Positions 3,660-47,703 of a stretch of 64,000 nt of DNA are shown here, in pieces. Position 1 is the stretch's first letter; the number at the start of each line of letters is the position of its first letter. The stretch is from the NCBI GenBank assembly GCA_900617105.1, contig UYFQ01000001.1, positions 3,286,001-3,350,000 on the forward strand, in the 5' to 3' direction. This stretch comes from Hydrurus foetidus. Lineage: Eukaryota. The position numbers and the translations under genes are program-made. The notes beneath the pieces were generated by a model. The model saw only the letters and a program-made list of their open reading frames with translations, had not been told where the DNA came from and made no database searches.

Positions 3660-4421
3660 ATGAGCCTAGCTTTAGGCAACCGGCAGTTGGCCATGCTGCG
3701 CGAAATGGGCGTGCGGGTGTGGCAACCTGCGCCCCCAAGCAAGGCGGATGCAACCGCCACCGTGCCAATTGCCACTGCACTGCGGCCTGCAATTGCTATT
3801 AATACAGGAGCTGCTAGCGCCCGAATTGAAGGCGTCACAGGCACTTTAGAGCCTAAAAAACGGCCTGCAGCGGCCGATTTGGCTCCACCGCCTTCAGCTG
3901 CGCCGCCAGACGGCACCCGTGCCGAGTCGGCTTGGCAAATCGGCGCGCTGCAATCGTTGTATCCCGCGCCAGAGGCCAGCACCGCGCCCCGCTGGCTGGT
4001 GCTGCTAGAAGCCCCCGCCAGCGCCTTGCAGGCTTCGTTCAACGCTTTTGAAGGTGATGCAGGCAAGCTATTGGGCAACATGCTCCGCGCCACGGGCATG
4101 CACACACTTGGCACGGTGCAGTTGGCGCCGCTGGTCAGGGGCAGCAGCGCGAGTCAAGCCTTGCCCGGTGCATTGCTTGAGTTGCTGGCCAGCCAGGCGC
4201 CCGATGTGCTGCTCGTGATGGGGCGGCTGGCAGCGCAGGCGGTGCTGCAGTCGGCCGAGCCGCTTGCCAAGCTGCGCGGCCAGGTTCATGCTGTGCCAGG
4301 CGAGCAACGTGCCATACCAACCATCGTGACGCTAGACCCCGCATATTTGCTGCGAAACCCGCTGGATAAAGCCAAGGCCTGGGACGACTTGTGCCTGGCG
4401 CTGAGTTTGAAGGCTGCTTGA
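3660..4421 (+). CDS. Uracil-DNA glycosylase family-4-like protein, degenerate
   Basis: AGKLLGNML, LRGQVH, PAYLLRNP.DKAKAWDDLC; Fe-S cysteines and catalytic His not seen. Confidence 0.8.
   Translation: MSLALGNRQLAMLREMGVRVWQPAPPSKADATATVPIATALRPAIAINTGAASARIEGVTGTLEPKKRPAAADLAPPPSAAPPDGTRAESAWQIGALQSLYPAPEASTAPRWLVLLEAPASALQASFNAFEGDAGKLLGNMLRATGMHTLGTVQLAPLVRGSSASQALPGALLELLASQAPDVLLVMGRLAAQAVLQSAEPLAKLRGQVHAVPGEQRAIPTIVTLDPAYLLRNPLDKAKAWDDLCLALSLKAA
3794..3848 (+). repeat. Dispersed 55-bp repeat, copy 2 (in frame in the UDG-like gene)
   Basis: tgctattaatacaggagctgctagcgcccgaattgaaggcgtcacaggcacttta, translated AINTGAASARIEGVTGT. Confidence 0.8.
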
Positions 4422-4423
4422 TT

Positions 4424-5320
4424 TCAGCTTGACGTTTTTAACTGGCGCGGGCTGCTTGAGGCCAACACCGTCACAATTGCCACCGCCATCAGCACCACGG
4501 CCGCCCAGTCTTGCCAGTGCAGCACTTCGCCTAACCACAGCGCGCCCGTAAACACACCCACGATGGGTACCATCATTGTGCTTAGGGTGGACGCAATCGG
4601 CGGCAAACTGCGTGCCAGCGTGAACCAAGCCGCGTGGGTAAAACCAAAAATCATCACGCCGTTGTAAACGATTGCGCCCCAGGTTTGCGCGGGCGGCATG
4701 CGCCATTGGTCGCGCTCAAAAATGGCCGACAACACGCTCAGCACCACCGCAGCCAGCAGCGTCATCCAAAAAGAAATGGTCAGCGTGCTGGCTGGCAGTT
4801 TCGTCATCCGCAGCCGCTGCGTGCCGACTGCCCACACCGCCGCTGCCGTCAGTGCGAGTGCCACGCCCAGCGGCTTGCCGGCTAAATTGGTCAGCTCATT
4901 AAACAAGAGCAGCGACACGCCAACAGCCGCAGCTGCCACGCCCAGCCACTGCAGCGGTTTGAGGCGCGTTCGGTAAAAAAACGCGCCCAGCACCGCCGAA
5001 AAAACCGGCATGGTGTAGCCCAAAATAGCGGCCCGCCCGCTGCTGAGCAAACTCACTGCCACAATGATCAGCGCGTGCCACACAAACATGTTGGTCACCG
5101 CCAGCCAGAACAATTCTCGCCAATCGCGCCGCGCCACAAAAAACGGCACCTTCATGGCCGCCAAAGCCAGCCCCAACACCGGCACGCCCAACCACAGGCA
5201 AATCGCGCGAAAGGTAAGTGGCGGGTAGCCGGTTACGCCCAGCTTCATCACTGGCCAGTTCACGCCCCAGGTCAGGGTGACGAGCACGATCAAGATGAGT
5301 TGTTTGCGGCTGAGGTGCAT
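4424..5320 (-). CDS. DMT/EamA family transporter
   Basis: About 10 TM segments, WGVNWPVMK, two EamA halves. Confidence 0.9.
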   Translation of the reverse strand: MHLSRKQLILIVLVTLTWGVNWPVMKLGVTGYPPLTFRAICLWLGVPVLGLALAAMKVPFFVARRDWRELFWLAVTNMFVWHALIIVAVSLLSSGRAAILGYTMPVFSAVLGAFFYRTRLKPLQWLGVAAAAVGVSLLLFNELTNLAGKPLGVALALTAAAVWAVGTQRLRMTKLPASTLTISFWMTLLAAVVLSVLSAIFERDQWRMPPAQTWGAIVYNGVMIFGFTHAAWFTLARSLPPIASTLSTMMVPIVGVFTGALWLGEVLHWQDWAAVVLMAVAIVTVLASSSPRQLKTSS

Positions 5321-5378
5321 TCGTTGTGAAGATCTGAATAGGCAGGGCCTTGATTGTGTAGCTTCTTACAATCGCAGC

Positions 5379-45246: not shown

Positions 45247-45260
45247 TCAGCGTAACGCGT

Positions 45261-46409
45261 ATGAACCTTGCGCCCGCCCAGCTGCCCGAACACATCAAGC
45301 GCGGGCTTAAAAGCTTGTACACCCTGCACGGCGACGAGCCGCTGCTGGTGCAAGAGTTTGCCGACGCCTTGCGCAGCGCCGCTCGCGCGCAGGGCTTTAC
45401 CGAGCGAGTGGTACACGTGGCGCAGGGCGCGCATTTTGACTGGAGCGGCGTGCTAGCCAGCGGCGGTTCGCTGAGTTTGTTTGCCGACAAGCAAATCATT
45501 GAAATTCGCGTGCCCAGCGGCAAGCCCGGTAAAGACGGCTCAGTCGCGTTGCAGCATATTGCCGAACGAAGCCAGGGCGATGACGCCACGCTAACGCTCG
45601 TTATTTTGCCCAAGCTTGACGGCATGACAACCAAGGGTGCATGGTTTGGCGCGCTCGACAGCTACGGCGTTACCGTGAAGTTTGAGCCGATTGCGCGCGG
45701 CATGTTGCCGCAGTGGATCAGTCAGCGCCTGGCCGCCCAAGGCCAGCGGGTAGCGGCGGGTGAAGAAGGCCAGCGCACGCTGCAGTTTTTTGCTGACCGG
45801 GTTGAAGGCAACTTGCTGGCCGCGCACCAAGAGATTCAAAAACTCGGGCTGCTGTACAACAGCGCCCCCACGCTCCCCGCTTCGCGCGGTTCGCTGCCCC
45901 CCGCGGGGGCGTCTTTTCCTAGGGGCGGCCCGTCGGAAAAGGCTGCGGATCCGATCACGTTGAGCTTTGAGCAGGTAGAAAACGCGGTGCTCAACGTCGC
46001 GCGTTACGACGTGTTCAAGTTGTCTGAAGCGGTGCTGGGCGGGCAGTCGGTTCGTGTGGCGCGCATGCTCGACGGCCTGCAATCTGAAGGTGAATCAGAA
46101 GTGCTGGTGCATTGGGCATTAAGTGAAGACATTCGCGCGTTAAAGCGCATCAAAGACACGATTGAGTCGGGCAGGCCAATGCCCATGGCGCTTAAAGACC
46201 ACCGCGTGTGGGGCGTCAAAGAAAAGCTCTATGAGCGCGTGCTACCGACCATCAACAGCGCAGCGCTAGCGCATTTGTTAACGGCCGCGCACAAGGTAGA
46301 CGGCATCTGCAAAGGCCTCAAGCAACCCGACTGGCCCGCTACCGGTTGGCAGGCGCTGCACCGGCTGGCCGCCATGGTGTGTGAGCAATGCGCCGCGCGT
46401 GCAAAATAG
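45261..46409 (+). CDS. holA: DNA polymerase III delta subunit
   Basis: [31 protein letters not shown]; carries a ~26-aa insert. Confidence 0.95.
45864..45941 (+). repeat. Palindromic element in frame in holA
   Basis: gcccccacgc...ccccccgcgggggc followed by the hairpin cttttcc...ggaaaag; encodes [26 protein letters not shown]. Confidence 0.75.
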
Positions 46410-46413
46410 CGCC

Positions 46414-47703
46414 ATGTCAGATCAAAATATCACGCTGCTGATGCAGGCCCTAGGCCAGAAGGCAAAAGCTGCTTCAAGCCATATGGCGCGAGCGCAAGCA
46501 GCTATAAAAAATAAAGCACTTATTGGCTTGGCGGCGCTTCTGCGGCAACACGCACCCGCGTTAGCAGCGGCCAACCAGCAAGACCTGAGCCGCGCTGCCA
46601 GCGGCGGCCTGGCAGGCCCCATGCTCGACCGCTTAAAACTCACGCCCAAAGACATTGAAACCGTGGCCATCGGCTGTGAACAACTGGCTGCCATGCCGGA
46701 CGTGATTGGCGAAATCATTGGCATGAAGCAGCAGCCCAGCGGCATTCGCGTGGGGCAAATGCGCGTGCCAATTGGCGTGTTTGGCATGATTTACGAAAGC
46801 CGCCCCAACGTGACGATTGAGGCGGCCAGCCTGGCGATTAAAAGCGGCAACGCCTGTATTTTGCGTGGCGGCTCCGAGGCGATTGAGTCGAACAAAGCGC
46901 TGGCGGCGCTGGTCCAAACCGCGCTGGTAGAAGCTGGGTTGCCAGCGGATTCGGTGCAACTGGTACCCACCACCGACCGCGAAGCCGTGGGCCAACTGAT
47001 CACCATGCCGCAGTTTGTCGACGTGATCATTCCGCGCGGCGGCAAGGGCTTGATCGAACGCATCAGCCGCGATGCCAAGGTGCCCGTCATCAAGCACCTC
47101 GACGGCAACTGCCATGTGTACGTCGACGATCCGTGCGACATCGCCATGGCGGTGCGCATTGCCGACAACGCCAAAACTCAAAAATACAGCCCCTGCAATG
47201 CGGCAGAAGGCTTGCTGGTTGCGGGCGGTGTGGCAGCAGAATTTTTGCCTTTGATAGCGGCTATTTATGCTGAAAAAGGCCTCGAAATACGGTGTGATGA
47301 GGCTGTAGCCCAAGTAATACGGGCGCAAGCAGCTACTGAAAATATAGCAATTGTCGAAGCATCTGAGCAGGACTGGTATGAAGAATATCTGGCGCCCATC
47401 ATCAGCATCAAGATCGTTGAAGGCGTTGACGAGGCCATTGCCCACATCAACAAATACTCAAGCCACCACACCGATGCCATCATCACAACGAATCACATGC
47501 ACGCGCAGAAGTTTCTGAGAGAAGTCGATTCAGCCAGCGTGATGGTCAACGCCAGCACCCGCTTTGCTGATGGCTTCGAGTTTGGCCTGGGCGCTGAAAT
47601 TGGCATTTCTACAGACAAGTTTCACGCGCGGGGCCCGGTGGGGATTGAGGGGCTGACTTCGCTGAAGTACGTGGTGTTGGGGGACGGGGAGGTACGAGGT
47701 TGA
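46414..47703 (+). CDS. proA: Gamma-glutamyl phosphate reductase
   Basis: [34 protein letters not shown]; start moved to 46414. Confidence 0.97.
46464..46518 (-). repeat. Dispersed 55-bp repeat, copy 16 (proA N-terminal helix)
   Basis: Reverse complement: tgctttattttttatagctgcttgcgctcgcgccatatggcttgaagcagctttt; 3' half is weaker. Confidence 0.68.
47295..47349 (-). repeat. Dispersed 55-bp repeat, copy 17 (in frame in proA)
   Basis: Reverse complement: tgctatattttcagtagctgcttgcgcccgtattacttgggctacagcctcatca; the gene reads [16 protein letters not shown]. Confidence 0.92.

Follow-up and report, generated by a model that had tools for sequence, protein, structure and literature searches.

How does one short piece of DNA come to be translated, in open frames, within several unrelated proteins? 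The question is raised by a 64,000-nucleotide stretch, hereafter the window, of contig UYFQ01000001.1 (positions 3,286,001 to 3,350,000; assembly GCA_900617105.1, recorded as Hydrurus foetidus). A first-pass annotation of the window, made from the letters alone, reported five copies of a repeat in coding sequence, inferred that a signal in the DNA is shaping the proteome, essential genes included, and named as analogues the Rickettsia palindromic elements and the DNA uptake sequences (DUS) and uptake signal sequences (USS) of Neisseriaceae and Pasteurellaceae. Here we describe this repeat as a 55-bp motif that is under DNA-level constraint, with orthologous positions kept, and that mostly adds few or no residues to its host proteins. 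Taking together the two kinds of reader weighed below, the motif is probably a site recognised on double-stranded DNA, kept by selection or drive and for the most part formed in place. As for the reader itself, we tentatively place uptake of DNA from kin first, with a cytoplasmic DNA-bending protein, on the unlikely side by itself, a close second. The window resembles Polaromonas DNA: among named genomes, the nearest relatives of its leucine-tRNA ligase (LeuS), 74-81% identical, come from Polaromonas, from a Comamonadaceae metagenome-assembled genome (MAG) and from another MAG, which bears the label Verminephrobacter; genome-scale figures given below come from the genomes of relatives rather than from that of the window.

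A 55-bp motif with two dyad boxes

A matrix seeded on 11 non-coding copies and applied to the window at a threshold of 12 bits recovered 20 copies of the motif, whereas the top score in 20 local shuffles of the window was 1.4 bits. The consensus reads TGCTAT-N7-RKAGCTGCTnGCGCCCGTAtttATTGGGCTAcAGCC, followed by a short AT tract. According to a codon-model gene caller built for this analysis, five copies lie in genes, two touch gene ends and 13 lie between genes. The five in genes are exactly those noticed before, namely in a udg-like gene, an alkane monooxygenase gene, leuS and, twice, proA, and all five of their peptides stand in open frames.

Two of these five copies are read in sense frame S0. 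The first (3794..3848, plus strand) falls in a Pro/Ala-rich linker of the uracil-DNA-glycosylase-like gene (3660..4421, plus strand), which follows tsaB and rimI and matches TIGR00758 only weakly, at 57.9 bits where the cut-off is 125.3; the second (44146..44200, plus strand) falls in a predicted loop between two helices of leuS (42005..44707, plus strand; TIGR00396). The other three copies are read in antisense frame A1. One of them (10303..10357, plus strand) lies in a minus-strand gene (9931..10998; PF00487) formerly called AlkB-like, which encodes an alkane 1-monooxygenase and not the DNA-repair protein AlkB. The remaining two lie in proA, encoding glutamate-5-semialdehyde dehydrogenase (46381..47703, plus strand; NF001221, TIGR00407): site 1 (46464..46518, minus strand) in a predicted helix-turn-helix, and site 2 (47295..47349, minus strand) in a predicted helix plus loop.

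Box 1 of the motif spans columns 2-18 and forms a 17-bp dyad, GCTAY-N7-RDAGC, whose centre is AT-rich; in each of the 11 genomes sampled, 90-100% of copies keep its T-N11-A pair. A second, weaker 17-bp dyad box is centred 23 bp downstream of box 1, and a third AT tract occupies columns 52-55. A conserved RNA or single-strand hairpin is unlikely, since the second dyad pairs inconsistently in Polaromonas, where its stem is broken in most copies, and since the strongest column correlations are between neighbouring columns. Mean column linkage in a test for subfamilies and covariation was 5-12% above the null, mostly due to one-base register shifts, and no compensatory pairs were seen to lead the covariation among motif copies. 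The highest pairwise identity between copies within any genome sample was 0.77-0.89, so that young, near-identical copies were not found in these samples, and neither terminal inverted repeats nor target duplications were seen at the copies examined. The motif had no match in Rfam, a blastn search of one copy against plasmids gave two chance matches only, and the consensus sites of Fis, IHF, Lrp and OxyR do not fit it.

The coding copies carry a signal at the DNA level

To separate peptide from DNA, each coding copy was recoded synonymously 500 times and scored with a matrix built from non-genic copies only. None of the 500 recodings reached the observed motif score at any of the five window sites, and the same was true of 27 of 28 copies in genome G030 and of all 33 in G031; as the copies were picked by score, this shows that the peptide alone does not yield the motif and is no measure of selection. 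The coding copies thus score better than codon-shuffled controls, and the signal is in the DNA. The AT-rich codons that had been thought unusual for the host genes are indeed so: third-position GC in the window genes is 0.23 inside the motif and 0.68 in the rest of the same genes (0.23-0.39 inside and 0.66-0.76 outside across the window, G030 and G031), and codon adaptation in the window is 0.46 inside and 0.69 outside (overall, 0.45-0.49 inside and 0.69-0.72 outside). When the window is compared with close motif-rich relatives, in pairs that share ancestry and are therefore not independent, the motif has proportionally fewer synonymous differences (44 of 189 codons) than the sequence outside it (1134 of 2877), and proportionally more amino-acid differences (107 of 304 inside, 730 of 3724 outside).

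The recoding test, this conservation at wobble positions and the scores of proA orthologues described below sustain the earlier claim of a DNA-level signal that shapes the proteome, essential genes included. Motif host genes in relatives encode, among others, HrpA, NadE, DapE, LigA, DnaX, GuaA, TruB, GatA, FabD, DprA and RNase E. Positions are also kept: the udg-like site has a copy at the same place in G001, G017, G023, G027 and G031, and none in G002, G008, G028 and G033. Several non-genic copies of the window hold their position while their flanks diverge from those of relatives, and one (21016..21070, minus strand) has no counterpart in the larger gap of three relatives; the orthologous gap was not recovered for seven of the non-genic copies.

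Two preferred reading frames

The statement that only two reading frames are used holds for all five window copies and is too strict beyond them, where these frames account for 73 of 86 genic copies in eight genomes (28 sense and 45 antisense, with 5, 5, 3 and 0 in the other four). This count omits 11 copies of G017, G023 and G027 from the region syntenic to the window, all of them in the two main frames, and palindromes read in the wrong orientation may account for some of the rare-frame calls. Based on 111 non-genic copies, stop avoidance and amino-acid composition together predict shares of 0.33 and 0.52 for the two main frames, identical to the observed 0.33 and 0.52, and a share of 0.14 for a third frame, observed at 0.06. 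Therefore, the frame bias needs no special mechanism. Furthermore, 496 of 677 GC dinucleotides in non-genic copies begin in one codon phase, and thus both frames read GC pairs as alanine and share the AT-rich wobble columns.

Mostly overlay rather than insertion at host genes

The four window sites at which length could be measured gain 0, +3, +2 and +6 residues over distant orthologues, the udg-like site being excluded because its linker is too variable. Since the motif spans 18 codons, the window copies are mostly overlays and not inserts of the Rickettsia type, and the analogy with Rickettsia palindromic elements, which would add a full element, is mostly not borne out. ProA site 1 has no insertion or deletion with respect to two solved homologues, and an AlphaFold model (numbering offset by 12) places it in a confident helix-turn-helix. 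G016, G019, G032 and Variovorax flavidus have its peptide in ordinary codons, without the motif, and motif scores across proA orthologues are graded, from below zero to 40 bits. Conservation of the peptides in taxa that lack the repeat, raised by the first-pass annotation as an argument against its own proposal, is thus borne out in part, the first proA peptide being largely conserved there; it leaves the DNA signal standing, and it indicates that the peptide was compatible with the motif before the motif arose. The turn of this site more commonly has Pro, Ser or Asp; a change to Gln is seen on three separate branches, and all of these score at least 26 bits.

ProA site 2 is longer by three residues than 4GHK and by eight than 1O20, and the leuS site, in a low-confidence predicted loop, is longer by two than 6Q89. 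The leuS orthologues with a box-1 score above 10 bits have one of two loop lengths (0 or +4), whereas in those scoring below zero the loop varies from -9 to +4. The alkane monooxygenase site is longer by six residues than 8F6T, and 118 of 121 near homologues are equal in length there. Sites in relatives gain +3 (NadE), +4 (TruB), +6 (GuaA) and +8 (GlpK). Alignment with orthologues speaks mostly for replacement in the window, and for insertion at a minority of sites in relatives (DapE and proA site 2 of Rhodoferax); no clean pair of empty and filled sites was seen among the orthologous sites compared.

Distribution among genomes and along chromosomes

Motif counts in Comamonadaceae are bimodal. 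A survey with a loose box-1 pattern, near-palindromic so that some sites were counted twice, gave 90-1432 hits in 94 of 301 genomes, 20-89 in 18, and fewer than 20 in 189, the last being near a reversed-pattern control; with a stricter pattern, no motif was found in 24 genomes from other families of the order. Nine of 37 Polaromonas genomes are at the background level. Among named genera, Polaromonas, Rhodoferax, Acidovorax, Giesbergeria and Comamonas are some of those with the motif at the leuS site. The motif is also present in the Comamonadaceae-type leuS (72% identity) of a contig filed in GTDB as Synechococcus sp., a title that is probably wrong for it.

On the complete chromosome G080, both strands are used and copies are spread uniformly all round (chi-square p 0.74, first 100 of 111 hits), with neither restriction to origin or terminus (ori/ter) nor strand polarity in this one complete genome. 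Convergent gaps hold 33 copies in 66 gaps and divergent gaps 12 in 87; in co-directional gaps orientation is even (23 vs 27). Spacing is more regular than the null in six of seven samples and significantly so in three, namely G031 (coefficient of variation, CV, 0.75, p<0.001), the window (CV 0.68, p 0.007) and G009 (p 0.024), and not significantly in G030, G036, G024 and G007. Motif-free stretches of 23-45 kb do occur in G030, the longest of which, annotated by eye, carry cytochrome, polysaccharide and metal-efflux clusters, four of the five having lower GC. One of these regions, at about 271000-316000 of contig C9 (L276-L278), is a 45-kb, almost motif-free island with probable multiheme cytochrome genes and its own ccm operon, again as judged by eye. 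Plasmids and viral contigs are poor in the motif: three plasmids, from hosts not typed for it, gave 11 strand hits and seven control hits in 971 kb, and about 170 motif stretches were found among 2.9 million viral contigs.

The second half of the motif varies between genomes, that is, it forms dialects. In a test with 11 matrices of 5-50 copies each, genic copies fit the second half of their own genome best in six of ten genomes, and the leuS copy does so in four of nine.

A possible DNA uptake signal

The reading that we favour, as the foremost of several and with due reserve, is that the motif is a signal for the uptake of DNA from kin, laid over the codons that the genes already had. A putative trans-acting reader would be part of the type IV pilus or competence machinery, and the motif would spread by biased uptake and recombination. 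Where a peptide is already compatible, point mutations would create partial sites, to be refined later at some expense in codon choice and with altered residues; the motif's second half would drift as the preference of the reader shifts, and the whole would decay once the reader is lost. Even spacing is a prediction of molecular drive. We rank uptake first because the turnover of dialects, the clean loss of the motif, its even spacing and its absence from islands fit drive, and because relatives transform selectively. The available text of Davidson 2014 (PMC4212676) describes pilus-dependent, apparently sequence-selective transformation in Verminephrobacter, without naming a signal sequence, and competence in two of four Acidovorax species.

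The evolutionary pattern of the motif agrees with the proposed likeness to DUS and USS. As in those systems, hundreds of copies are dispersed on both strands all round the chromosome, and copies within coding sequence originate in place, as at proA site 1, with insertions at a minority of sites. Also shared with them (PMC2817400) are a fraction of one third to two fifths of copies in genes, a frame bias, location at poorly conserved residues, scarcity in accessory DNA, and dialects. Close inverted pairs of the motif, in contrast, are rare.

Reduced pili provide a lead, not a result, in the search for the reader. A reduced pilMNOPQ cluster is present in seven motif-less Polaromonas and in none of the five motif-rich ones checked; in those seven, PilM, where present, is 26-39% identical, as opposed to 80-91% elsewhere, PilQ is short and PilY1 is missing. 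Among near-complete genomes, PilY1 was not found in five of 20 motif-poor and in none of 40 motif-rich ones. The reduced pilus of several Polaromonas (L413, L414, L428, L429, L343, L441, L442, L444) has features of its own, namely a PilQ that is short (in G002 and G028, 479 aa), PilMNOP proteins that evolve fast, an inverted minor-pilin cluster lacking PilY1, and a single PilT, with ComEC kept, and DprA kept where found. Separately, the minor-pilin cluster between nrdR and ribD (L411, L412, L415) is swapped or highly diverged between congeners, at 26-38% identity versus 81-93% for neighbouring genes. A motif-specific minor pilin was not seen when two motif-rich genomes were set against three motif-less ones. 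The ComEA model matched instead long frames of about 800-900 aa, which are probably Tex.

Several observations weigh against an uptake signal, beginning with the form of the motif. Known uptake signals are non-palindromic and occur about once per kb, whereas the density of the motif is 0.08-0.31 per kb, that is, 3-10 times lower. At 55 bp, the motif is about five times longer than the DUS/USS core (9-12 bp), and it consists of two dyad boxes while that core is non-palindromic. Its in-gene copies use unpreferred codons, whereas DUS and USS favour preferred-codon frames (PMC2817400). Since two defining features, core length and density on the one hand and preferred codons on the other, thus fail, we do not class the motif as a member of DUS/USS.

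No receptor was found either. ComEC, PilT-family proteins and DprA are present in 77, 79 and 78 of 80 genomes, respectively, irrespective of the motif; the motif-rich G117 has no ComEC match and the motif-rich G070 no PilT match, and in the complete, motif-rich G067 (L427) comEC matches fall in three frames, pointing to a frameshifted gene or a sequencing error. Conversely, the motif-poor G008, G029 and G032 retain an intact pilMNOPQ or a full PilT set, and G030 and G031, with nearly identical motifs, share only 26-38% identity in their minor pilins. On a quick ProA tree, a single clade was rejected neither for the seven reduced-pilus genomes (approximately unbiased test, p 0.65) nor even for ten motif-less ones (p 0.39), and the link between pilus and motif may therefore come down to a single event. 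The Verminephrobacter DNA scanned, limited to a 31-kb plasmid and 8.8 kb of a MAG, has no motif. Finally, real insertions exist at some sites, namely one of about +25 in DapE and one of about +14 at proA site 2 of Rhodoferax.

Other readers and origins

The first rival, which we deem unlikely and yet the best of the three, is an abundant cytoplasmic DNA-bending protein, acting as a dimer of dimers with the site geometry of LysR-like proteins, that organises the chromosome or limits supercoiling, with selection keeping each site even in genes. The pair of 17-bp dyad boxes, AT-rich in the middle and spaced by 23 bp, the third AT tract and the nearly invariant T-N11-A pair suit such a protein, at the expense of uptake, as do the costly codons within genes. 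The even spacing, the copies held by half of the convergent gaps and the failure of competence genes to track the motif point the same way. However, the copies show no restriction to origin or terminus and no strand polarity, which also separates them from matS, KOPS and parS-type nucleoid sites. They are depleted in promoter-bearing gaps, so that the motif is not the regulon of a regulator, and the long motif-free stretches are tolerated. Dialects that shift between congeners and the complete loss of the motif in several Polaromonas are harder to reconcile with hundreds of functional sites than with drive. No such protein was identified, no search by name having been made.

An old mobile repeat, of the repetitive extragenic palindromic (REP) type or the MITE type (miniature inverted-repeat transposable element), is improbable to a further degree. 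Such a repeat would have inserted in frame, as Rickettsia palindromic elements do, would have had its flanking residues trimmed, and would now be kept by selection. Length differences from distant orthologues are zero or positive (+2, +3, +3, +4, +6, +6, +8, about +14 and about +25), and this lean, with the minority of real insertions, keeps this explanation alive; a patchy taxonomic spread also suits it. Set against these are the zero-indel overlay in the ProA helix-turn-helix, the weak column linkage, and the missing young copies, terminal repeats, target duplications and empty-site/filled-site pairs already described. Like the motif, Rickettsia palindromic elements encode peptides in unrelated, functional proteins (PMC10969869), and they differ from it in being insertions of about 150 bp, as opposed to a usual gain of 0 to +8 residues; motif copies are, moreover, degenerate and old, with one site within conserved helices.

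GTAG/CGTC REP families with their REP-associated tyrosine transposase (RAYT) resemble the motif in being short, dispersed and in part intragenic (PMC3733652, the main text of which names none of five Comamonadaceae terms looked for), and differ from it in that the motif has no stable hairpin, forms few dimers and does not flank the Y1 transposase. A single copy of this RAYT-like Y1 transposase, of about 232 aa, occurs in 36 of 37 Polaromonas, including genomes without the motif. In the 18 loci read (L333-L350) it lies upstream of gltB, flanked by an inverted repeat of its own, of the GGGGTCAGA type, and looks domesticated. RAYT is thus ruled out as the partner of the motif, being present in motif-less genomes too and flanked by a different repeat. 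Two abundant repeats reported in the same family of bacteria could be the same element: the palindromic repeat VeiPR1 of Verminephrobacter, named from a thesis in PMC3975124, and a MITE of Polaromonas JS666, cited in PMC10969869. Our literature searches, which did not extend to the primary accounts of these two repeats, found no description of the 55-bp motif.

That the motif acts as RNA, be it a terminator, a nuclease site or a structured element, is very improbable: enrichment in convergent gaps and a short stem possible from box 1 agree with it, and the lack of an Rfam match, the neutral orientation within genes as well as in co-directional gaps, the disruption of the second stem in the majority of Polaromonas copies and a covariation not led by compensatory pairs do not.

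Implications of the motif

Sequence-selective uptake by a known signal has been described for two bacterial families, and Comamonadaceae, a family often met in treatment plants as well as in fresh water and soil, would be the third case if uptake is the correct reading. This family might then possess a third, independently evolved genome-wide self-recognition signal, namely a 55-bp bipartite site with genome-specific dialects and a receptor unlike ComP or the Pasteurellaceae pilin, which rewrites codons and residues in core enzymes (LeuS, ProA, LigA, GuaA, RNase E, DnaX) and whose consensus is itself in codon phase; we advance this with the same reserve as the uptake reading. It would name the missing signal behind selective uptake in Verminephrobacter, offer a way into the transformation of these bacteria, and have a bearing on how genes move between their species. 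If the reader were instead a cytoplasmic protein, the motif would be a chromosome-wide, high-information site without known counterpart. Either way, it is a clear and testable case of non-coding selection altering residues in essential proteins, and its peptides warn against interpretation as protein motifs. New in this analysis are the recoding and wobble tests, the quantitative account of frames, the parallel change to Gln, the tests of spacing, context and chromosome distribution, the rejection of RAYT as a partner, and the lead to pili together with what limits it.

Further motif copies and repeats in the window

The copies outside genes were all placed by the matrix scan. On the plus strand, one upstream of tsaB (2321..2375) is found at the same place in G001, G017, G023 and G027, and one between hprK and fur (38628..38682) is kept in G001 and G031. 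Two more are non-genic or at gene edges, at the end of the monooxygenase gene (9898..9952) and of mtnN (31658..31712). The top score in the window belongs to 19017..19071, and further plus-strand copies lie at 13842..13896, 23110..23164, 25067..25121, 35088..35142 and 57235..57289. On the minus strand, a copy between gshA and kup (50566..50620) is kept in G017, G023 and G027, another lies at 55584..55638, and that at 20291..20345 stands back to back with a plus-strand copy at 20415..20469.

The window holds a second dispersed repeat, with ends of the GGGGTCAGA/TGACCCC type at 22791, 22867 and 25307 (regions 22791-22940 and 25279-25325), and a stretch at about 22887-22939 has many matches in G001, G017, G023, G027 and G031. 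A TGACCCC-type word also occurs at 49580, within a gshA-type gene (49082-50467; 461 aa) that is longer than those of relatives and matches its profile in two stretches.

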